A DNA stretch of 64,000 bases. Origin: a virus. The notes under the pieces were generated by a model that worked only from the letters and a program-made list of their open reading frames with translations, made no database searches and was not told where the DNA came from. The position numbers and the translations under genes were made by a program. The DNA lies in IMG/VR virus record IMGVR_UViG_3300044970_000539, positions 32,001-96,000 of that record. One strand, written 5' to 3'. Below are positions 19,311 through 43,375 of this stretch, in pieces; positions within the stretch are counted from its first letter, which is position 1; every line of letters starts with the position of its first letter.

Positions 19311-19595
19311 ATGAAGCAACATTTATGGAAAGATCAAGCAGCGTGTCTTGGTCTTGATACTAATATCTTTTTTGATAAGTATGAAGACAATGTAGATGTG
19401 CGCCCAATTGTAGATTCAATGTGCCAAAGGTGTCCAGTATCAAAGGTTTGCTTTGCTAACGGTGTTTCTGGTAAAGAGTACGGTGTATGGGGTGGGGTGT
19501 TCCTTGAACTTGGAAATATATCTAGAGAGTTTAATAAACACAAAACCAAACAAGACTGGGCTAATACTTGGCAAGCATTGACAATGGAGAAATAA
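19311..19595 (+). CDS. whiB: WhiB-family transcription regulator
   Basis: W...AAC...FF...CQRCPV...C...GVWGG. Confidence 0.92.
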   Translation: MKQHLWKDQAACLGLDTNIFFDKYEDNVDVRPIVDSMCQRCPVSKVCFANGVSGKEYGVWGGVFLELGNISREFNKHKTKQDWANTWQALTMEK

Positions 19596-30685: not shown

Positions 30686-30827
30686 GACTATTGCTTTAAT
30701 GGCATAACAGCATCACATATACAGATGATTGACTCTGGCAATGTATGGACTTTAGTATTGATTGCAATAGTTGTTGCACACTCTGGACACTTGTATGTAT
30801 TCTTCATATACCCATCATATCATAGAG

Positions 30828-30880
30828 TTATCCACAGGTTTTATGTTAGAAATGTCATAGTTATCCACAAGTTATCCACA
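30828..30880 (+). promoter_or_regulatory. three perfect DnaA boxes (TTATCCACA)
   Basis: 30828-36, 30861-69, 30872-80. Confidence 0.8.
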
Positions 30881-30964
30881 ATTAAATGTTACTGATATTT
30901 TTTAGATTTATCCCAAAGTGGAGGAAAGTGGAGGATAGTGGTTTATGGAGCACTTTTATAGAGG

Positions 30965-31550
30965 GCGTTCGTAATGTCGCAGAGCGCCAAACCTCCTACC
31001 ATAAAACCTTTACATTGTCAAACCTTCATATTTGGATAGCGGATTATACTCCCAAACCTCTATATTGTCAAGTATATTTGATAACAATTTGATAACAAAC
31101 CCCTATATAAAACCTCTCAAAATGTGAGAAAAATGTAGAAAAACCTCTATAAAAATATATAAAGGTTTGATAAATATTCTAAAATCCAGGGAAAAATATA
31201 TGTCCTTCGTAATGTCTTTTATACTATAGGGTTTGGTATATCTTTTGATCCCCCGCTGCAGAATGTCTGATAATCCTGGGTTTCATTGCAGGGCGGGGGA
31301 TAAATAAAGAGAGTTCGTAATACCCCTATAGTAATAACAAACCATACATTCTGGTTTTTGGATATAGAGGTTTGAAAGATATGAGTTTATATGATATAAG
31401 GTTTGACAAACAAGGTTTGATATGCTAGAATCCTGGGAAATTTATAGGTCGTTCGTAATCTTTTTTATTGGGATATAAGGTTTGATCGAAAACCCTGCGA
31501 ATTTTTTAGAAGGTTCGTAATAAGGTTTGGTGTGTAAAAGGTTTTTCGAA
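30965..31550. repeat. iteron-rich non-coding region, putative replication origin
   Basis: AAACCT repeats invert to AGGTTT around 31155; TTCGTAAT x5; TTGATAACAA tandem; GC-rich hairpin 31248-31300. Confidence 0.6.
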
Positions 31551-31554
31551 AATC

Positions 31555-31833
31555 TCAGTCTTCAGCAGCAGAGATTTCCAAAACCTCATCAAGGGTCATG
31601 CCTTCAATGATGTCATCTTCAGTAAGTTTAATAGACTCAAGAAACATTTCAAATGTGTCAGCAATGTATCTGCGACCATCATCTGAAACCTCAACAACCA
31701 AACCCTGTGATGTTAGATATGCCAATGGCAATCCGAGATCGTTGTATTCTATAAAGGCTCTGAAGTCTTTCTCTTCTTTATAGTTTTCATACAACTCCCC
31801 CAGGATTACACACTGTGTTACAAAATCTGTCAC
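31555..31833 (-). CDS. acidic hypothetical protein
   Basis: 92 aa, DLGLPLAY motif. Confidence 0.7.
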   Translation of the reverse strand: MTDFVTQCVILGELYENYKEEKDFRAFIEYNDLGLPLAYLTSQGLVVEVSDDGRRYIADTFEMFLESIKLTEDDIIEGMTLDEVLEISAAED

Positions 31834-33538: not shown

Positions 33539-33882
33539 TTATTAAGTATATCCTCTGCTACTGACAAAAGGTGGCGGGTAGCCTCAATTGCTCCAACATT
33601 ATAATGCCAGTCAATTGAATCCTCTCCTAACGATGACTGTTCAATTAGTTCCTTGTCTTGTTCAAGACTGATTAAATGAATCTTCATATACTCAATAAAC
33701 TGGGTCATTATCTATCCTTTCGTAAAGAGGTTTCTCGCAGGGCAGGGTCAAAGATTTCGCAGTAGCAGACATGGCATAGCATGAAGTTATCAGCCTCATC
33801 AACATTAAGTTTATTCTTGCATACTGTGCAGTCGTATTCAGTAAAGGTGGCAAATCGGGTGTAAATTACATTGGTCATAATA

Positions 33883-34098
33883 CTAATTATACGGGTTGGT
33901 GTTGATTTTCACAAGCCCACGGGGTGTGACCTTGCTCACATCTGTAATGATAGGGGCATTTCCATCTTCTTCTGATATTAGGACAACTATTCCATACCCT
34001 CCACAAATACAGGCAGGATCAAGAACCTTATCAGCACAAGCAGTGATTTGAATCAGCGCATCACAATCAGTACATAGATAATCATACTTAGTCCACAT
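33883..34098 (-). CDS. small Zn-ribbon protein
   Basis: CTDC...CICG. Confidence 0.6.
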   Translation of the reverse strand: MWTKYDYLCTDCDALIQITACADKVLDPACICGGYGIVVLISEEDGNAPIITDVSKVTPRGLVKINTNPYN

Positions 34099-34630
34099 TG
34101 ATTACTCCCCAGCACTTATCGCAGGTAAAGCCATTAGGTAGGGAAACATCATCAACTCTATCTCCTTCTACCCCATCCCAGCAGGGTACACAAATAACAC
34201 AATCATCTAAGTAAACACCAATAGTATTCATTAGTCAAAATACCCTTCTGCCCATAAGCCCTGGAGAAACTGTTGTGCCATTAAGATACCCTCTTTATCA
34301 TCAGGGTCAGTTATATACTTATATGAATTGTGTACAGCATTGCTCATCTTATCTAAATCATCAATGGTATAACCTAACATTATTCTCCCCAATATTCTAC
34401 TATAAGGTTTAATGCACTACAGATACGGCAATCACAAGGGTCTCCCCCCATGTTTTCCATAAATTCAATGTGAGAGAAATTATCCTCACAGATTTGTTCA
34501 ACAAGGTCTTTTACTGTGTAAGGTTTGAATGTGGTAGTCATATATTAATTATAGCCGAAATCCTAGAAAAATACAAATCCTTACGTAATCGTAAAGTGTG
34601 TTTAATATCACATTGTCGAAAAATTTCTTG

Positions 34631-34704
34631 CGATCCGTACGGGACTTGAACCCGTGACCTCCACCGTGACAGGGTGGCGAACTAACCAACTATTCTAACG
34701 GACC
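34631..34704 (-). tRNA. trnD: tRNA-Asp(GTC)
   Basis: GGTCCGT/ACGGATC, CCACC-CTGTCAC-GGTGG, GTTCAAGTC. Confidence 0.93.
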
Positions 34705-34707
34705 GTG

Positions 34708-34736
34708 TGAGCAGTTTTAATTCTTACTCAGGAATT
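34708..34736 (-). ncRNA. H-type pseudoknot motif copy
   Basis: AATTC-CTGAGTAA-GAATT-AAAAC-TGCTCA. Confidence 0.65.
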
Positions 34737-34743
34737 TTTTTAA

Positions 34744-35760
34744 TTATGCAATTTGCAAAGTGCTTTGCACAATCTTTAGCAAACGATTTTTTTCTGCATT
34801 AATAGCAGGGTCAAAACCACTTGCAGATGCAAGGATAGATTCGTTAGAACCACCACGAGCAGAACGGTACCAATCAAGGCGTTCAGTTAGTGCATTGAAA
34901 GCACCCCAAGCATTACCAGCAATCATGCCGTTAAACTCGCCTGTGTAGATGTCATTGATAACATCAACCTTGTTTTCCCACTTCTTGAAAGCACCCTTAG
35001 AATCTTTTTCTGGCTTAGGGTATGCAGCAAGAATGATGTCGTTAAATTGCTTAGCAGAAACTTCCTTCTCAATCATAGCCTTAGCCATGAGGTCAAAAGA
35101 ATCCATGTACTTGTGAGCCATGCCAAGAGTCTCACGAGCAACGGCAACCTTACCAGAAGCGGTCTGAGTGTGGCGAATCTTGAAAGATTGCTTGACACCA
35201 TTCTTTTTCTTAGTAGTGTTTAGTGCAAGATTAAGAGTGTTAGCGCACACAACACGAACAGGTGTAATGCTTGCTTGAATAGCGATTGAGCCGTCATGTG
35301 ATGTGTTGATAAGTAAATAAGTCTTTACCTTATCTGCAACACCGTTAGGGTCTAGGACAGTTTCACGCTCTAGTGCTAATGCACCGAATACGACACGACC
35401 ACCCTTGATTGAGCCAGCCGTTTCCCAACGACCTCCACCGTCAAGAATGTTGTCACCGAATGAGAATAAATCTTCATTCTGCATAACATGATAACGCTCA
35501 CCAACGACACCAAGAATGTCGGTCTGTGAGTTATCAGTAGGGTTAGTACGCAAAACATACTGGTATGCCTTGTCGCTTGTTAAGTGTGATGGGGTTTCCA
35601 AATCTTCCAGACGAACATTCCAATTATTTAGATTGGCAGCAGCAAGCATTTCGCTTGTTGTTTTTTCTTCTGTAAATACGGTACCCAATCCATGCCAAGC
35701 AGGTTCACGAAATGATGCAAAACTTGCTACGCCATTTTGTGATTCTAGTTCATGTGCCAT
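34744..35760 (-). CDS. DUF932-family (TIGR03299-like) protein
   Basis: MAHELE...REPAWHGLG, Y..MQN, ETAGS..GG, YLLI.TSHDGS, TPVRVVCANTL. Confidence 0.88.
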   Translation of the reverse strand: MAHELESQNGVASFASFREPAWHGLGTVFTEEKTTSEMLAAANLNNWNVRLEDLETPSHLTSDKAYQYVLRTNPTDNSQTDILGVVGERYHVMQNEDLFSFGDNILDGGGRWETAGSIKGGRVVFGALALERETVLDPNGVADKVKTYLLINTSHDGSIAIQASITPVRVVCANTLNLALNTTKKKNGVKQSFKIRHTQTASGKVAVARETLGMAHKYMDSFDLMAKAMIEKEVSAKQFNDIILAAYPKPEKDSKGAFKKWENKVDVINDIYTGEFNGMIAGNAWGAFNALTERLDWYRSARGGSNESILASASGFDPAINAEKNRLLKIVQSTLQIA

Positions 35761-35936
35761 GAGTTTTCTCCTTTTTGTTGTTGTTAATTTAAGTATACAC
35801 GGACGGTCTGACAAATGCAAATCGGGATAGTTAAACATAGGGCAATTCGGACATTTTTCTTGTGATCTTAAACACATGCTCGTAACTTGACATTGACTGG
35901 TCAGCCGTGTCGAAAAATTTTTCAAGGGATTGAGCG

Positions 35937-35964
35937 GAGCAGTTTTAAAACATGCTCAGGTTTT
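35937..35964 (-). ncRNA. H-type pseudoknot motif copy
   Basis: AAAAC-CTGAGCAT-GTTTT-AAAAC-TGCTC. Confidence 0.65.
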
Positions 35965-35979
35965 GTTAGTAGCCCCCTA

Positions 35980-36396
35980 CTAAATATCTACTCTGTCAAC
36001 ACTGGATGACAAATAAGTTACCTCTTCACCATATGAAACAGAATCAAAATCAATTTCATGAATTGCATTAATTGCTTCTTCTTCATTACGTGCATTGACT
36101 GTAATTGAATACTGAACTGAAACTTCCAATTCAAATTCTTTTGCTAATTCAAAACCACAGATGTCTGCAATTTCTTGTGCAGTGCTCTCATCAATGGTAC
36201 CGTTTTCCATTGTTTCCAAGGTCCACTCTTGCATTTCATTACGCATACGGGAGCGCTCTGCAGCCTCGCCGTATGAGCGCTGAGTTACTTCTTGAATGTG
36301 CTTTTCTAATTGCTCAATGCGTGTTTTGTTTTGTACTAGTTGTGACTCAAGAAACTCTCGTGTCATGTAGTGATTGTCTATTACTGGTTGGTCCAT
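35980..36396 (-). CDS. acidic hypothetical protein
   Basis: 138 aa, own promoter and RBS. Confidence 0.75.
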   Translation of the reverse strand: MDQPVIDNHYMTREFLESQLVQNKTRIEQLEKHIQEVTQRSYGEAAERSRMRNEMQEWTLETMENGTIDESTAQEIADICGFELAKEFELEVSVQYSITVNARNEEEAINAIHEIDFDSVSYGEEVTYLSSSVDRVDI

Positions 36397-36472
36397 GGGG
36401 GCCCTCTTTCTGTTAGTTGTTTAATTTAATTATACTGGGCACCACTGACAAATGTCAAGATCCCCTTACGGG

Positions 36473-36499
36473 GAGTAGTTTATACACATACTCAGGTGT
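36473..36499 (-). ncRNA. H-type pseudoknot motif copy
   Basis: ACAC-CTGAGTAT-GTGT-ATAAAC-TACTC. Confidence 0.65.
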
Positions 36500-36554
36500 C
36501 TCATCTCAGGCATACCTACGCATCATGGCATAGGGCTTAGCAGAGATAAATTAT

Positions 36555-36980
36555 TTAGAGATAACGAGCAATAGCGTTGTATGTAGAAGTATTAACTACT
36601 TCCTCATCTGTCATCTTGAGAATACGAATAGCGTTCTCAATTTCCTGCTTTTGCTCTAGGTATGAGTGACGACCCATTTGCTCAAACTCACGCTCAGGCT
36701 CTACTGGCAGACCTTCTTTAGATACTGTCAGGTCAAAGTCAATGTTGAGTTGGTTGTTCCATGAGCGATAGTTAGTGCGGAAGTTTTCTGCCTTCTTGAT
36801 GTTTGCTACTGCATACTCAACAAGTTCCTTCTGCCACTTCTCATAAGCCTTCTTATACTTTGCTTCGTTTGCTTCTTGTGAGGTGTAAGACTTTTCTAGT
36901 TCTGCTAAACGAGTTTCTAGTGCCTTAATTACCTTTGGTGTTGCGATTTTTACTGAGATTGATTTTCCGTTTCTTGCCAT
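36555..36980 (-). CDS. hypothetical phage protein
   Basis: 141 aa helical, EIENAIRILKMTDEE.V.TSTY. Confidence 0.75.
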   Translation of the reverse strand: MARNGKSISVKIATPKVIKALETRLAELEKSYTSQEANEAKYKKAYEKWQKELVEYAVANIKKAENFRTNYRSWNNQLNIDFDLTVSKEGLPVEPEREFEQMGRHSYLEQKQEIENAIRILKMTDEEVVNTSTYNAIARYL

Positions 36981-37025
36981 GTGTTTTCTCTTTTCTTTGG
37001 TGGTTTAATTGTTAGGGGGTTGTGT

Positions 37026-37054
37026 TGAGCAGTTTGTATTCATGCTCAGGAATA
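37026..37054 (-). ncRNA. H-type pseudoknot motif copy
   Basis: TATTC-CTGAGCAT-GAATA-CAAAC-TGCTCA. Confidence 0.65.
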
Positions 37055-37064
37055 AGCAATTAGA

Positions 37065-37229
37065 TTACTTAGCCGTCCAAGTTGTGTATCGGTGTGAGCC
37101 ATTGACATCTAACTTTACACGAACATTACCATTTGGTTGTGGGTTAATCTCTACGATTGTTCCTGTTACCTTTGACTTCTGTGTTGTGTATGTGTCGCCT
37201 ACCTTGTAGGTTGCTGTTGCTACTGACAT
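37065..37229 (-). CDS. small SH3/KOW-like beta protein
   Basis: YKVGD...TGTIVEI...VRVKL; AAGGAG RBS. Confidence 0.65.
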   Translation of the reverse strand: MSVATATYKVGDTYTTQKSKVTGTIVEINPQPNGNVRVKLDVNGSHRYTTWTAK

Positions 37230-37444
37230 TGTGTTTCTCCTTTTGTTTAGTGTGTTTTGCTTATGTATTAAGTGTAACATTTCCTACTGACATTATCAAC
37301 ATTTTTCTGAGATTTCTCACTATTTGAGACGCTCAGGGGGTGTGAGTTGAGTCACATTAGACAGATTGAGGGCTATTGTCCACCTGCCACGATTAGCATG
37401 ATTAGTAGCCCTATTCCTGTTGCTATTACTATTTCCATTTTTCC

Positions 37445-38167
37445 TCATTTCTTTGTTGCTGAGAATACTATGTCACTCTTTGAGTATACACAAAGTGAGC
37501 AAGAAACGCAAGCCGAACCCTTAGTGCTAATTAGTGGTATCTGCTTATTATTCTCAGGACACTTAGCGCCAGGTTTATTTGTTAGGGCTTTCATGTCTGC
37601 TTGTCCAATTAGAAAGTTTTTAGCAAGGTATGCTAATTTAACTCCATGATCTGTTTTTAATTCCACACCTGTATCTTTATTCTCGCTATCTGTGGAATAG
37701 TATAGTGAGAGATTATCAATACCCTTCAACATTAGGGCGGCACTTTTAACTCTAGTGTAAACCCAGAATTGAATATCAGGATTATTAAGGATGACATGCT
37801 TCCATGCGAATGTATAAGTATCGTTAAAGAAGTCTCCGTCCCAATGGATACGGAATAGCATAGGGGCTTCACGCTTTACACAATCAGCCTTGAAGTCTTT
37901 TATCATATCTTCAAGCAATGCTTCAATAGTATCGTGATCAGCGTCTTTAACTAATTCCCAATTGTGCAATAGGTTTTTCTTTACTGTTGGGAATACTTTT
38001 TCCAATTTGCCAGCATAACAAACACTCTCGCATACGCTAGTCGCTCCAGGGCATGAATAAGCCTTTCCTGCGGGTAATCCGAAAGTGTTGGCGATACTTG
38101 CTTGTTTTCCATTTGGTGTAACTGCATTTGCTACTTTCCTATCTTTGCTTCTTAGTAGTTTAGTCAT
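37445..38167 (-). CDS. GP88-like protein (Cys-rich, possible Fe-S enzyme)
   Basis: FGLPAG..SCPGAT..C..VCYA, FRIHWDGDF, FWVYTR, NLSLY.S.D. Confidence 0.75.
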   Translation of the reverse strand: MTKLLRSKDRKVANAVTPNGKQASIANTFGLPAGKAYSCPGATSVCESVCYAGKLEKVFPTVKKNLLHNWELVKDADHDTIEALLEDMIKDFKADCVKREAPMLFRIHWDGDFFNDTYTFAWKHVILNNPDIQFWVYTRVKSAALMLKGIDNLSLYYSTDSENKDTGVELKTDHGVKLAYLAKNFLIGQADMKALTNKPGAKCPENNKQIPLISTKGSACVSCSLCVYSKSDIVFSATKK

Positions 38168-38421
38168 GGTGGCTACTCTCTTTCTTTCTTTAATTCTAAC
38201 ATAAGGGACTGACATTTTTTTCTATCGTATTTTTTCTTATTGGGTACGGCAGAGGCAGCGTTAGACCTACGTAATTCCATAAGCCTACGTAATTCCTCTT
38301 TGCTTTTCTTCATACTTAATCTTAGCAGAATCGTGGAAAAATGTCAAATCTTACGTAAACACGACACGCCCGACTGCGTTCGAAAATTTTGTGCGGGGAA
38401 GCACACAAAATCTTTTTTTAA

Positions 38422-38664
38422 TTATTCGTCAGCGTCTACGTAAACGTAAAGAGAAACTGATTCATCATACTTAAATTGCACAATGTCTTTGTCACCAAAA
38501 TCGGTTTTATAAGCAACCGCATAGACATCGCCTGTTTCATCGGATGCAATTCCAAGTACTTCAACAACCTCACCATCAACCATGATTAGATCTTCAATCA
38601 TTAGTTGATCTGGTGTTAGGCTATCTGCAAATTTTAATTCCATATTAGATATTGTAACAGTCAT
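38422..38664 (-). CDS. small acidic beta protein
   Basis: ORF with GGGGG RBS. Confidence 0.6.
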   Translation of the reverse strand: MTVTISNMELKFADSLTPDQLMIEDLIMVDGEVVEVLGIASDETGDVYAVAYKTDFGDKDIVQFKYDESVSLYVYVDADE

Positions 38665-38727
38665 TTTAACGAGCCCCCGCAATCATTAGTAGGAATAAAA
38701 AGCAGCCTGCAACAAATAAGAATTCTA

Positions 38728-39048
38728 TCACTCAAGCCCCAATCCTAACTCATAGCCTGCATCCTCTTCGCCATAGTATTCATCTTGTGGCAACCAAAAA
38801 TCCAAGTGGTGTTGTTCAATGATAGCCCACGCTGGTGCATGACTCATGCCTTTATAGAATACGCCTTCTGGCATAGCAATAAATCGCATAGCGTCATTCT
38901 CATAGTATGCATCAATAGCATCAATGCAAGGTTGCACCATGCTTAGCGGTACTGGTGGATAGTGATTACCTTGCAAGTGATAACCAATAGCCTGTTCAAG
39001 TGGTAGATCTAAGTTTGTTGCTAGGTCAATTCCTGTCATGCTTCCCAT
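38728..39048 (-). CDS. hypothetical phage protein
   Basis: HLQGNHYPPVP...C..AI...HHL..W. Confidence 0.7.
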   Translation of the reverse strand: MGSMTGIDLATNLDLPLEQAIGYHLQGNHYPPVPLSMVQPCIDAIDAYYENDAMRFIAMPEGVFYKGMSHAPAWAIIEQHHLDFWLPQDEYYGEEDAGYELGLGLE

Positions 39049-39269
39049 TATCGTGTTGTTACCTTTCCCATGCGGTCAATAATTTTTGTGTGCATTTTGC
39101 CTGACGGCTCTGATAAATTAATTGTTGAGTACTCATTAGCAAACCCGACATCAACAAAGCGTTGGTATGCTTCCACGGCAGTTAAAGCATCTGAGTAACG
39201 ACCAACCCAATTAGGCTTAGTGCCTGAGTCATAGGTTACTGTTATTGAGTATAGGTATTCATTATTCAT
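39048..39269 (-). CDS. hypothetical protein
   Basis: 73 aa, coupled. Confidence 0.65.
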   Translation of the reverse strand: MNNEYLYSITVTYDSGTKPNWVGRYSDALTAVEAYQRFVDVGFANEYSTINLSEPSGKMHTKIIDRMGKVTTR

Positions 39270-39448
39270 TATGCATTCTCCAATGTGTATTCGTTTAATT
39301 CATTACTAGCGTACCATTCGCAATACTCATTTTCAAGTGTCATGCCTTTAACGCACTCACAAAACTCTGAGTCAAACTCCTCATGACCATTACCAAAAAA
39401 GAGGACACCCTCATCATAGCAATCATAGCAATCCCAATTATTCATTTA

Positions 39449-39658
39449 TTAGTCTCCAATCTTTACTGCAAGTATGCGGTATGTATCTTTTAAGTTAAGT
39501 GGTGCTGAGTAGTGGGGGCGTACCTGAACACGATAAGACTCGCAATCTTGATACCATACATCAGACTTTTCTGCTGAGATAATTTCTCCCGTAAGTGTGC
39601 GGGACTTATAAGTTTTTCCTACAAGTAGGTTTTCTATTGTATAGACATTTGCTGACAT
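39449..39658 (-). CDS. hypothetical protein
   Basis: 69 aa, AGAGG RBS, own promoter. Confidence 0.65.
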   Translation of the reverse strand: MSANVYTIENLLVGKTYKSRTLTGEIISAEKSDVWYQDCESYRVQVRPHYSAPLNLKDTYRILAVKIGD

Positions 39659-39915
39659 TTGCCAACCTCTTTCTTTTTGTTGATAATTCTATCCTACCAT
39701 AGGGGTCTGACATTTTCTGTTAGACACGCCCAAAGGTAATAGACTTTCTTTTATTTATTTTTTCTTACTATGTAAGTCTAGCCTATTAGACAAAAAATCT
39801 CAAGTTACTTATGAGTAATCTTAAATAGTGAGACGCTCAAGCCATGTGACAAATCTCACAAATCTAGCCTGTGGATAACTCTGTGGAAGACACGCCCGAA
39901 CGGGTCGAAAAAATT

Positions 39916-39944
39916 TAAGCAGTTTGAAATCATGCTTAGGATTT
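39916..39944 (-). ncRNA. H-type pseudoknot motif copy
   Basis: AAATC-CTAAGCAT-GATTT-CAAAC-TGCTTA. Confidence 0.65.
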
Positions 39945-39949
39945 TGATT

Positions 39950-40102
39950 TTACTTTTTAAGTCGCTCAGTTCGCAACGCAACCTGCAATCTGCGAATTTC
40001 TTTATGTTGCTCAACGTTTTGTTTCCAAAACGCAATCATCATTCCAACAGATCCAGCAAGTGCAATTACAATTGCGATAAGTGTTCCAGTGTCTAGAATC
40101 AT
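39950..40102 (-). CDS. small membrane protein
   Basis: MILDTGTLIAIVIALAGSVGMMIAFWK... 50 aa. Confidence 0.6.
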   Translation of the reverse strand: MILDTGTLIAIVIALAGSVGMMIAFWKQNVEQHKEIRRLQVALRTERLKK

Positions 40103-40284
40103 GCTTTCACCTCAACACCATCAACGCAAGCATCATAGAATTTATTTTCATCAAATCTAGGATTATCAGAAGCAAACCATTCGCTAAATTCAAAAACTAA
40201 TTGGTCAAAATCATTTGAGTCAATGTCATCAACGAATTTGTTTAGAATTTTTGCAGTTTCTACATAGTCTTTACGAGTCATCAT
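40099..40284 (-). CDS. hypothetical phage protein
   Basis: MTRKDY...A.I...F..DNPRFD..KF..AC. Confidence 0.75.
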   Translation of the reverse strand: MMTRKDYVETAKILNKFVDDIDSNDFDQLVFEFSEWFASDNPRFDENKFYDACVDGVEVKA

Positions 40285-40490
40285 TATTCGGCCACCTTTA
40301 GAATTGCATAAGAGCCACCTTCATTGATGTGGTCCAAGATTGGTTGAAGTTTAGAACCGACTAGGTCCTTGAGCATTGACTCAAGCATTGCAATTTGCAT
40401 TTCTTTTTCTAGTGCAAGAAGTTGCATTCCTACTGGATGAGTCTCGTCTACCTCTGTGACGAACTTTAGATTGTGTTCAATTTTTACCAT
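40284..40490 (-). CDS. hypothetical protein
   Basis: MVKIEHNLK..., AGGA RBS. Confidence 0.6.
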   Translation of the reverse strand: MVKIEHNLKFVTEVDETHPVGMQLLALEKEMQIAMLESMLKDLVGSKLQPILDHINEGGSYAILKVAE

Positions 40491-40509
40491 GTTTAGTTTT
40501 CCTATTCTT

Positions 40510-40707
40510 TTAGTTTGAGTTAGTAAGTGTACGAGTGCCACGAAGTACGCCACGAACGCCAAGGGCATCACATGACATTTTTACGGATACGCCAACAGGT
40601 AATTGTGTTGGGTAAGTTGATACGAATTGAGCAACCGCACCACGAGAGGCAAGGTTGATTTTTTTAGTTGAACCTGAAAAGGTTTCTAGTGTAACAGTGT
40701 AAGTCAT
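40510..40707 (-). CDS. hypothetical protein
   Basis: 65 aa, AAGGA RBS, own promoter. Confidence 0.65.
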   Translation of the reverse strand: MTYTVTLETFSGSTKKINLASRGAVAQFVSTYPTQLPVGVSVKMSCDALGVRGVLRGTRTLTNSN

Positions 40708-41563
40708 TGAGTGACTTCCTTTCTTTAAGTGATAAGACTATCCTATCATGGGGCACTGACAAATTGGGGCACTTATTCGCTAGGCTCACTGTGATACTGG
40801 TCACATTTATTTGCTAGGCTCATTGCCTTGTCTGTCCTTATTTAATTGTTATACTAGAAGTATAGCAAGGAAATGTCAAAAAGTCAAGTCCTGCATGGGC
40901 GTGTCGTGTGTGATTTACACCACACCTACCCTGTGGATAAGCCTGTGGATAACTTTTGTCGAAAATTTTTCAGGGGATCAATCCTGAAAAACTTTTCTAT
41001 TAACTATGAATTGCAATAACAAAAGCAAAACAAGTAATTGCGATTAGAATAACTAACATTAGTTTTCCTCAATTTCATTTAGTAGTTCCCATAGCACGGG
41101 TTCTAGTGCAAGGGCTGCTTCATCTAACTTTTCTTGTAAGGTTTTCATTTACTTACCTTCATTCTTTCTAATTATTGCAATGCATTCTCTAATTGCAGTA
41201 ACGCCATTCTGGTCGCCACGATACTCAATGATTAGGTTTTCTAATTCACGAATTGTTTTTTCCATTTATGCAATCTCCAATTCGTTATAGTCAATAACCT
41301 GAAAGTCATGTCTTTCTAGTGGCATAGCCTTTAGCCATGATAGTGCAGACTCAAAGTCCTCAGCCTCAATAGTAACCATTAGGTCAAAGTTAAATAGTGT
41401 CATTACTTTACCTCCTTGTATAAAAAGTCCCAAGCCTTACGGCATAACACAATTGATTTGCAATTGTCACAACAGATAACCCCATGAGGGTTAAGGTCTA
41501 GGTCATAGACATCTACGCTGGCAGATGTCGCCCCACATACTGAGGGGAGATTAACAAAGGTAC

Positions 41564-41764
41564 TCATCTTGTAAGTCCTTCCTTTCCATAAGTGTTAATA
41601 AAATCAGGGAGAGCCATTACGCCCTTGTAGTCTTTACATCTAGGGCAAAATCTATTCCACCCGTCAAATAGTGTTATGCAAAAAGCGCAAATGTTATCCA
41701 TAGCGCATAAGCCTTGCTCATCTATAAATTGCATAGTGTCTAAGAATTGATTAGTCTGGTTCAT
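41564..41764 (-). CDS. small Zn-finger protein
   Basis: CAFC...CPRC.DYKG. Confidence 0.65.
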   Translation of the reverse strand: MNQTNQFLDTMQFIDEQGLCAMDNICAFCITLFDGWNRFCPRCKDYKGVMALPDFINTYGKEGLTR

Positions 41765-42288
41765 TTAGTCACATACCAATCTGTCCACATAGGGAATTGC
41801 TCAGGGTCACTATCATAGTAGTAACGCTCAATGTTTTGTTCACAATCTACGCAGAAAGTGAATTGGTTATCCCCTACCTCGGAGATAGCGGAATACTGAG
41901 GATTATGCTCAGTGCATTTTGTTAGTGTAGTCATTTTGACCTACCTTTCGTTAAGGGATTTCTTTACCCTTGTTTTTCTTTATACTGTAAGTGTAGCATG
42001 GGGGTCTGACAAATTGCAAACCCAAAATGGTATCAAAACGGACATTGTGAGGCGTATCACATGAGACATAGGTCACATTTGAATGGTCAAAGATAAAAAT
42101 GACCATTTTCTACGGCGTGTCGCCTTGACAAAATCGGGTCGAAAAAAAGTTATCCACAACCCCTGTGTATAAACTATGTGACGGGTATCACAAAAATACT
42201 TTCCCGACACGCCCGAAAAACAGGCTAATTTGTCAGTGGTAGGTGCTAGAATACTATGTATAAAGATTAACAAAGAAAGGTGTTCCCA

Positions 42289-42888: not shown

Positions 42889-43218
42889 ATGATTCTTACA
42901 GAAAAAGCAAAACAAAAAGTTTCGGAACTCATAGGAGACTCTCGCATATCTATCCCAGATAGAGAGATCTTCCTAAGAATCTCTGTTCAGCCTGGTGGAT
43001 GTTCTGGACTTAGATATCAAACCTTCTTTGACTATGAAAAGTTAGACGGAGATACGGATTATAACTTTGAAGACTTTACATTAAAGTTAGATAGAATGTC
43101 TGTTCCTTATTTACAAGGGGCTACGCTTGATTTCGTTGACACAATTGAAAAACAAGGTTTTGTACTTGACAATCCCAATGCTCAAGGATCTTGTGCATGC
43201 GGAGACAGTTTTAACTAA
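42889..43218 (+). CDS. iscA: HesB/IscA A-type Fe-S cluster carrier
   Basis: LRI.V.PGGCSG, LDF, F..DNPNA..SCACGDSF; leaderless. Confidence 0.92.
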   Translation: MILTEKAKQKVSELIGDSRISIPDREIFLRISVQPGGCSGLRYQTFFDYEKLDGDTDYNFEDFTLKLDRMSVPYLQGATLDFVDTIEKQGFVLDNPNAQGSCACGDSFN

Positions 43219-43234
43219 TTTCGAGGGGAATCAA

Positions 43235-43375
43235 ATGGCCATACTAGATAACGTAGACAACAATACATATCCTTTATTTGAGACAGAATCCACATCTCTG
43301 GCTGTAAAAATATTTTCAGAAACCTGTTGCAATGGATGTTCTTGCAAATCAGAGTCTGATCATATAAAAGAATAA
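43235..43375 (+). CDS. small Cys-rich protein
   Basis: GAGGGG RBS; CCNGCSC. Confidence 0.55.
   Translation: MAILDNVDNNTYPLFETESTSLAVKIFSETCCNGCSCKSESDHIKE

Follow-up and report, generated by a model that had tools for sequence, protein, structure and literature searches.

Probable fold-operator-promoter cassettes repeated in the early small-gene region of a virus with a probable actinobacterial host

The stoperators of cluster A mycobacteriophages occur in dozens of copies throughout the genome and come with an immunity repressor. In T4-type phages, the elements called PeSLs combine a strong early promoter with a stem-loop terminator in one small cassette, and the gene indels and replacements that separate relatives end there (PMC2839356; PMC4122927). 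On the bacterial side, the published PafBC consensus tGTCgg(N10)tA(N3)T belongs to promoters without a -35 box (PMC8635444), and WhiA recognizes an asymmetric GACAC a short way upstream of the -35 region, on either strand and with variable spacing, reading it together with WhiB (PMC10243135). Here we describe a viral locus that resembles each of these systems in part. It lies within a window of 64,000 nucleotides (nt), which corresponds to bases 32001-96000 of the 105,135-bp virus record IMGVR_UViG_3300044970_000539; the ends of the record are direct terminal repeats, and positions below are those of the window. The minus strand between 33.3 and 42.3 kb carries about 35 small open reading frames (ORFs), among which nine repeated intergenic blocks, A to I, are interspersed. 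The evidence supports these blocks as maintained, multi-part regulatory modules. We consider it rather probable that they are composite terminator-operator-promoter cassettes of an early small-gene region, similar to the PeSLs of T4 and served by host factors.

Followed along transcription, a cassette comprises the end of one gene, an RNA fold, the TCGAAAA motif (TTTTCGAC), GGGCGTGTC together with DnaA boxes, a CRP-type site, one or more promoters, and finally the ribosome site and the next gene. Folds adjoin predicted promoters in blocks A-I. An earlier note, made from the letters of the window, had listed the parts from left to right, which is right on the plus strand; the genes are on the minus strand, so that the transcription order is the reverse. 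The common order that the same note gave for the blocks was borne out, but some blocks lack parts: those near 34545 and 35790 possess neither GACACGCCC nor perfect DnaA boxes.

The motifs were all located where they had been reported, and most of them were well above chance when their counts in the window or the genome were compared with shuffled sequences. TCGAAAAWTTT has four exact copies in the window (34616, 35910, 38380 and 40959) against 0.16 expected, with variants at 39905 (TCGAAAAAATTT) and 42139 (TCGAAAAAAAG, without the TTT), and nine of the 11 TCGAAAA copies in 105 kb fall within 31.4-42.2 kb. GACACGCCC is present five times in the window (0.10 expected), with a further reversed 8/9 copy at 42114, and is confined in the 105-kb genome to 38363-42214. 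The DnaA-box 9-mer TTATCCACA was counted seven times in the window (0.76 expected), four times in the span described earlier and three times at 30828-30880, and there are eight perfect boxes per genome. Perfect TGTGA-N6-TCACA palindromes number six in the genome (0.22 expected), all in 33925-42177, while 10 of the 11 occurrences of TGTCAG-N10-TANNNT (1.6 expected) lie in 33545-42231. The vocabulary is nearly limited to the leftward early-gene block at 33.5-42.3 kb. TTACGTAA taken alone was not enriched (two copies, 0.8 expected; 19 of 100 shuffles match or exceed it), TGAGACGCTCA has two copies, and a simple promoter and terminator scan was of little use, scarcely exceeding the shuffles. Between blocks, repeated sequence does not exceed the size of the motifs (42 nt or less, with 60-85% identity), which agrees with the view of the earlier note that the motifs are maintained rather than recently duplicated.

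That note had also made conservation in relatives decisive. A protein search with GP88 led to 80 related IMG/VR loci (77-98% protein identity, 892 kb), across which the motifs are clearly kept. TGTCAG-N10-TANNNT (683 copies) and perfect CRP-type palindromes (403 copies) are found in 80/80 loci, TTATCCACA in 77/80 (244 copies), GGGCGTGTC in 52/80 (105 copies) and TTTTCGAM in 23/80 (96 copies). An unbiased count of 9-mers that admitted distinct flanks only was topped by CGACACGCC, with 193 contexts or 113 times the expectation, followed by the promoter box, the pseudoknot and the DnaA box. The family logos are CGACACGCCg, aaaaaTTTTTCGACccg, aaGTTATCCACAgg, TGTGAt.ta.aTCACA and aaATGTCCGatTTg; the logos TGTGAt.ta.aTCACA and aaGTTATCCACAgg fit the consensus of CRP-type sites and DnaA boxes, respectively, as had been proposed for these two motifs. 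aaATGTCCGatTTg is an additional motif absent from the first reading. It occurs in 183 distinct contexts at -41, -34 or -24 from the TGTCAG box, often as direct TGTCC repeats about 10 bp apart, both in the relatives (L001-L080) and in the window regions 35848 and 42030, and no matching factor could be named for it. The relatives carry ATGTCCGatTTG too.

Fixed positions relative to the promoter characterize most of these sites. Across 555 non-redundant contexts of the TGTCAG promoter, and with the initial T of the box as reference, CRP-type sites begin at -44, -54, -65 and -82, GACACGCC begins at exactly -25 (34 non-redundant contexts), and ATGTCCG at -41, -34 or -24. DnaA boxes are found between -63 and -105, and TTTTCGAM and forward GGGCGTGTC furthest upstream. 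The DnaA boxes are often paired, with 11-12 bp between the members of a pair and A/T runs beside them. The distance from the CRP-type site to a -10-like hexamer peaks at 37, 49, 60, 70 and 81 nt. Assuming that the -10 box starts at -12, the CRP-type centers would fall near -41.5, -53.5, -64.5, -74.5 and -85.5, all on one helix face. At least two motif types occur together in 249 of the 555 upstream regions, and CRP-GACACGCC, CRP-DnaA and GACACGCC-DnaA pairs have odds ratios of 4-6 against independence, values that are inflated by shared ancestry.

Three promoter types are predicted: a sigma-A-like type in which a TTACG element precedes the -35 box, a type with a CRP-type site centered near -41.5, and the gene-proximal TGTCAG-N10-TANNNT, some copies of which retain a -35 box. 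TTACGTAA and TGAGACGCTCA, formerly treated as separate motifs, turned out to be pieces of promoter cores. TTACGTAA is one variant of the TTACG-type element just upstream of the -35 box, in a second promoter type beside the TGTCAG one, and TGAGACGCTCA is the conserved spacer of the class with the 37-nt distance, to which block G is orthologous. In blocks A and F, the -10 box of the sigma-A-like promoter ends 5-6 nt ahead of the ATG (34541 and 38313) with no ribosome site, suggesting that both messages are leaderless, probably including that of a 46-amino-acid (aa) ORF. Leaderless messages are common in actinobacteria. The peptide of the 46-aa ORF is kept in relatives through synonymous codons (CGT, AGA, AGG or CGA for Arg; TCC or AGC for Ser).

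The fold at the gene ends is, in five copies on the minus strand, a 27-nt element located just past stop codons (Table 1). We tested its crossing two-stem structure on 90 distinct copies from relatives, which had been selected with a pattern that contained stem 1 but not stem 2. Pairing was found in 92% of the cells, as opposed to about 30% in slid controls, and none of 500 shuffles (0/500) matched the covariation, which involves both stems; in stem 2, two pairs showed four and three pair types with no sequence unpaired. The element is a real H-type pseudoknot of 27-30 nt, and the "pseudoknot or hairpin" of the earlier description was well chosen. An Rfam search returned tRNA only, the pseudoknot not being in Rfam, and its copies fold weakly when scored as plain hairpins. 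Blocks F and H have A/U-flanked hairpins instead (z -3.2 and -3.5), whose 3' arm is the A/T run of the TCGAAAA motif and whose U-run lies partly inside the stem.

The content of the cassettes turns over among relatives. At the orthologous promoter that precedes a small ORF and the GP88 gene, the distinct variants carry a CRP-type site (16), GACACGCC (17), ATGTCC (12), DnaA boxes (3) or none of them (9). The modules are thus interchangeable as well as combinable, and the proposed integration of several host signals is unproven: the motif types do occur together, yet relatives substitute one type for another at this promoter. The same pseudoknot, TTTTCGACCCG and site row follow different upstream genes in the loci L001/L004 and L003, as well as in the window and L018. 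Elsewhere the upstream gene is the same and the site row differs right after TTTTCGACCCG, as in L099 versus L037 and in L002/L005 versus the window. Similarity breaks within cassettes at 36550-36574 (52), 38350-38374 (45), 34600-34649 (40) and 40875-40899 (30), and equally strong breaks occur at the cassette-free gene junctions 40275-40299 (46) and 41750-41774 (40). In L023, L008 and L088, the segment 42135-42446, which holds the rightward promoter and the first plus-strand genes, is inverted, with one end, at 42135, next to a TCGAAAA copy. As a separate observation, a 50-aa membrane-like ORF at 39950-40102 (minus strand) is missing in the close relatives L001 and L004, and this indel stops at the edge of the cassette G pseudoknot.

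Compared with the T4 PeSLs, the locus likewise presents compact fold-promoter cassettes repeated among small, mostly unknown early genes of a variable region, the promoter being predicted as sigma-70-like. Clear examples of genes gained or replaced up to a cassette edge exist among close relatives, but breaks are as common at plain gene junctions. The two systems differ in that they have no sequence relation and hosts of different phyla. The fold here is often a pseudoknot, a row of distinct predicted protein sites is placed between fold and promoter, and there are often two tandem promoters, one of them of the type with a -26 box. Mini-circles and a proven role in recombination are features of T4; for the present cassettes, a PeSL-like role in shuffling genes is plausible.

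According to the interpretation we favor, the RNA fold, be it the pseudoknot, an A/U-flanked hairpin or tRNA-Asp, would end or shield the previous message, in one clade with a T-run ending in CGAC(CCG) after the fold. There would follow a row of sites at fixed promoter distances, made up of CGACACGCC, TTATCCACA DnaA boxes (often paired) and CRP/GlxR-type palindromes on one helix face. One or two promoters for the host RNA polymerase would come last, a sigma-A type with the TTACG element and the gene-proximal TGTCAG-N10-TANNNT without a -35 box. Host factors bound to the sites could raise or gate the recruitment of polymerase unit by unit, acting as activators or repressors, and the shared short conserved stretches may make the cassettes joints for the exchange of genes and site modules between relatives.

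Several observations weigh against this interpretation. The pseudoknot is also found between genes without a promoter after it (block D), and termination is not established because no classic U-tract follows directly on the pseudoknot stem. The TCGAAAA copy at 42139 sits in a divergent region without a preceding hairpin, which is the chief objection to regarding TCGAAAAATTT as part of a terminator. CGACACGCC and ATGTCCGatTTG match no nameable factor, and that the host has CRP, PafBC and WhiA is an assumption. The layout CGACACGCC-N17-TGTCAG-N10-TANNNT had 16 matches in 596 Gb of cellular genomes where about 17 were estimated by chance, so that no host regulon with such a layout was found. Finally, the counts from relatives are inflated by shared ancestry, the contexts having been dereplicated with no tree correction.

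Which proteins might read the sites? Among the phage proteins, no CRP helix-turn-helix (HTH), DnaA C-terminal domain, WhiA HTH or WYL domain was found, so any such readers would be host proteins, and the sites are most likely read by host factors. The CRP-type sites share with class I and class II CRP/GlxR sites the 16-bp TGTGA-N6-TCACA, the inner preferences and steps of 10-12 bp, with one class near -41.5; the palindromes are enriched and helically phased upstream of the promoter. The other phage centers, near -53.5, -64.5, -74.5 and -85.5 with start sites assumed, are shifted by about 3 bp from class I positions of Escherichia coli. For DnaA, the 9-mer TTATCCACA is clustered. The enriched TGTCAG-N10-TANNNT has the geometry of the published PafBC consensus, and like PafBC-dependent (RecA-NDp) promoters of mycobacteria it combines a GTC box near -26, ten bases and a TANNNT -10 box, often with no -35 box (PMC8635444). 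The phage boxes differ in having A and not G as the fifth base, in that some copies have a good -35 box, and in that they stand outside the DNA-damage regulon and are preceded by phased CRP-type sites.

The case of GACAC, equated earlier with the WhiA core, is divided. Its location upstream of the -35 box agrees: of 265 contexts of GGCGTGTC, 70 have it 3 nt upstream of a -35-like hexamer, and 39 of 267 contexts of GACACGCC have that word 10 nt upstream. WhiA/WhiB promoters of Streptomyces likewise have a GACAC core just upstream of the -35 box on either strand, and WhiB would be available here as a phage-encoded protein (PMC10243135). However, GCC follows in 237 of 378 upstream GACAC words (63%), giving GACACGCC, and a C precedes the word (family consensus CGACACGCC(g)). 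The conserved word is therefore 9-10 nt long and unexplained by a 5-nt core, specificity does not reside in those five nucleotides alone, and the spacing in the phage is exact and orientation-specific. We regard WhiA as a candidate reader rather than as identified, and the phage WhiB as a possible partner of the GACAC-binding factor. An MtrA-like site was also considered for GACACGCC and rejected for want of a match. Several of the 16 cellular matches mentioned above are short contigs of lake metagenome-assembled genomes (MAGs) that resemble mis-binned phage. Three Lake Baikal MAG contigs of 1-2 kb (L131, L132 and L135), binned as Flavobacteriaceae or Proteobacteria, bear the phage-type GACACGCC-TGTCAG promoter and are probably mis-binned phage fragments.

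One could go further and imagine that an enhancer-like array of sites wires each early unit simultaneously to cyclic AMP-CRP/GlxR, to DnaA, to a GACAC-reading WhiA recruited by the phage WhiB and to a PafBC-like adaptor acting on the -26 box. The phage would thereby sense how its host stands in energy, replication, division and DNA damage, and relatives would retune by module swaps; we hold this extended version to be improbable.

The host is taken to be an actinobacterium because WhiB serves in the literature as a marker for freshwater actinophages (PMC10914622) and because GP88, DUF932, the terminase and an iron-sulfur (Fe-S) assembly protein point the same way. Besides WhiB, the phage encodes GP88 and DUF932; its large terminase shares 55% identity with Streptomyces phage terminases, and the Fe-S assembly protein shares 53-69% identity with actinobacterial proteins from three actinobacterial MAGs. 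From these sequences we infer a low-GC and probably freshwater actinobacterium, the freshwater origin being a guess from the IMG/VR relatives and the lake-MAG contigs. The phage looks lytic. Nucleotide searches of cultured phages for close and for distant similarity gave no match, and Streptomyces phage Yaboi, the closest cultured phage by terminase, has neither the TGTCAG promoter box nor CRP-type sites; there is thus no cultured model. Phages of the abundant freshwater actinobacteria are known almost only from metagenomes. The locus offers a complete and testable control grammar, kept in more than 80 related contigs, whose elements are three types of promoter, CRP-type sites in helical phase, DnaA boxes, two motifs that lack an assignment and the pseudoknot at gene ends. 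It suggests that the virus uses an actinobacterial DNA-damage-response promoter type for early genes, and it would extend the idea of mobile promoter-terminator cassettes beyond T4-type phages to an unrelated group.

Other explanations of the cassettes have to be weighed against regulation by host factors. The non-canonical motifs CGACACGCC, ATGTCCGatTTG and TTTTCGACCCG could be operators for phage early proteins, forming a shut-off or timing switch that would be stoperator-like for the oriented TTTTCGAC. Confinement of the motifs to the phage early region, the chance-level frequency of the composite layout in cellular genomes, the lack of the vocabulary in Yaboi and the orientation of TTTTCGAM with transcription in 80/96 copies all fit such a switch. 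About twenty small early proteins without a Pfam match could include DNA binders as well, although no HTH or other DNA-binding domain turned up in a Pfam search of the early proteins, in which 16 of 20 tested had no match above the curated cut-off. Moreover, CGACACGCC occurs in both orientations at promoter-fixed positions, as an activator site would, TTTTCGAC is limited to about nine copies in a single region and most relatives do not have it, and the phage shows neither repressor nor integrase, for which reasons we rate phage-encoded readers as unlikely, if worth keeping in mind. If, instead, the cassettes were mainly homology patches for T4 PeSL-like recombination that shuffles small genes among co-infecting relatives, regulation would be secondary. 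This idea draws on constant cassettes behind different upstream genes (L001/L004 versus L003; window versus L018), on constant genes with site rows changed right after TTTTCGACCCG (L099 versus L037; L002/L005 versus the window), on the many similarity breaks within cassettes, and on the inverted divergent-promoter segment of L023/L008/L088 that ends at 42135. Breaks are just as strong at plain gene junctions, however, and non-coding DNA is expected to break alignments regardless. The flank-discordance test did not single out TTTTCGAM (0.08 versus 0.06-0.35 in controls, which is not discriminating); some exchange junctions do fall at TCGAAAAATTT. The exact promoter-relative positions require a regulatory role, and we doubt seriously that recombination is the main purpose.

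DnaA boxes invite two further explanations. The cassettes that contain them could be parts of transcription-activated replication origins with the other motifs as accessory origin sites, as might be suspected from box pairs 11-12 bp apart beside A/T runs, from a phage without its own DnaA domain, and from a nearby 850-bp non-coding stretch at 30.7-31.56 kb in which three TCGAAAA copies and about eight TCAAACCTT-type repeats accompany three DnaA boxes. Yet no fewer than four separate cassettes contain boxes, at fixed promoter distances, CRP or GACACGCC sites replace them at the same promoter in some relatives, and the GC skew tracks gene direction with no origin signal in the early region; an origin function of the cassettes is quite improbable to us. 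Alternatively, the DnaA boxes and CRP-type sites could form a decoy array that soaks up host regulators as the phage DNA multiplies and in this way shuts down catabolite control or the initiation of replication in the host. Such a sink might look like what is seen: each genome has eight perfect DnaA boxes and six perfect CRP-type sites, often closely paired, and the 80 related loci hold 244 and 403 copies. However, a sink has no need of exact, helically phased promoter distances, the sites are kept to early control regions instead of lying genome-wide, and at one orthologous promoter unrelated motifs take their place. The pure decoy entertained earlier is a poor fit, and we give it very little credence.

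The TCGAAAA motif deserves separate consideration. In the TTTTCGAM orientation, every window copy is on the transcribed strand. TCGAAAAATTT comes after a pseudoknot, a hairpin or the 3' end of tRNA-Asp and ahead of the site row. It is present in 23/80 related loci only; elsewhere, GC-rich hairpins directly abut the CRP-type site. The chances seem about even that in one clade TCGAAAAATTT serves the terminator before it as T-run and boundary; a protein site appears less likely, and a preferred joint for exchange is rather doubtful. The likeness to stoperators that had been noted is partial. TTTTCGAC is asymmetric, lies in short intergenic gaps and is oriented with transcription as stoperators are, but it has about nine copies in one region instead of many genome-wide, most relatives are without it, no immunity repressor was seen, and the motif shares bases with a terminator-like fold, in its 3' arm or T-run. 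A LexA box, an UP element and a promoter element were also tried for TTTTCGAC, and the spacing was unfit for each.

Table 1. Positions of the cassettes, their parts and associated genes in the window
Feature	Position	Strand	Parts and remarks
WhiB-family gene	19326-19499	+	PF02467, 47 bits
Cassette A	34542-34629	-	-10 box TATAAT six bases before ATG at 34541; TTACGTAA 34581-34588; near-CRP TGTGT-N6-TCACA 34597-34612; TCGAAAAATTT 34616-34626; abuts tRNA; linked with cassette F promoter by repeat family D11
tRNA-Asp	34630-34704	-	3' end followed directly by TTTTCGAC, in window and relatives
Gene-end pseudoknot, copy 1	34707-34733	-	repeat family D2
Cassette B	35752-35979	-	TGTCAG-type promoter 35792-35813; ATGTCCG motif; near-CRP 35861-35876; TCGAAAAATTT 35910-35920; pseudoknot copy 35935-35961
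Cassette C	36397-36554	-	TTGACA-18-TATAAT promoter that bears a TGTCAG box too, 36429-36458; GC hairpin 36461-36474; pseudoknot variant with compensated stem 36471-36497; without TCGAAAA motif
Block D pseudoknot copy	37025-37051	-	between two genes, no intervening promoter; z -3.0
Cassette E	37271-37444	-	TGTCAG-type promoter 37271-37292; TGAGACGCTCA 37325-37335; perfect CRP-type site 37341-37356
46-aa basic small ORF	38173-38313	-	start 5 nt past the -10 box of the upstream promoter; TGTCAG box of the next gene within the ORF
Cassette F	38216-38421	-	hairpin 38388-38412; TCGAAAATTTT 38380-38390; GACACGCCC 38363-38371; TTACGTAA 38351-38358; TTGACA-17-TAAGAT promoter 38319-38347
Cassette G	39659-39949	-	pseudoknot 39915-39941; TCGAAAAAATTT 39905; GACACGCCC 39889-39897; DnaA box 39870-39878; perfect CRP-type site 39845-39860 in class II-like placement; TGAGACGCTCA spacer 39829-39839; second GACACGCCC 39723-39731; TGTCAG-type promoter 39691-39712
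Cassette H	40708-41010	-	hairpin 40966-40991; TCGAAAATTTT 40959-40969; DnaA boxes 40932 and 40944; near-CRP 40909-40924; reversed GACACGCCC 40897-40905, 9 nt upstream of TTGACT-17-TATACT promoter 40859-40887; perfect CRP-type site 40790-40805; TGTCAG-type promoter 40740-40761
Cassette I, divergent control region	41935-42279	.	leftward TGTCAG promoter 41990-42011; CRP-type sites 42046-42061 and 42177-42192; reversed GACACGCC 42114-42121; TCGAAAAAAAG 42139; DnaA box 42150-42158; GACACGCCC 42206-42214, 16 nt upstream of rightward TGTCAG promoter 42231-42252

The window has a GC content of about 37% and seven tRNA genes. Plus-strand genes start at 42280, which makes the segment before them, cassette I, a divergent control region. 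A HesB/IscA-type Fe-S cluster assembly gene at 42889-43218 on the plus strand is absent from the closest relatives, whose alignments skip from 42875 to 43229-43235 across it. The gene looks like a recent gain, and a class-wide search for its donor gave nothing closer than the 53-69% matches. The stretch 30700-31560, without a convincing gene, contains about eight repeats of the TCAAACCTT(T/A)TAT type, DnaA boxes at 30828, 30861 and 30872, and several ATTACGAA-type promoter-like units; it is kept in L002 and L005 and is a candidate replication origin or small-RNA region.

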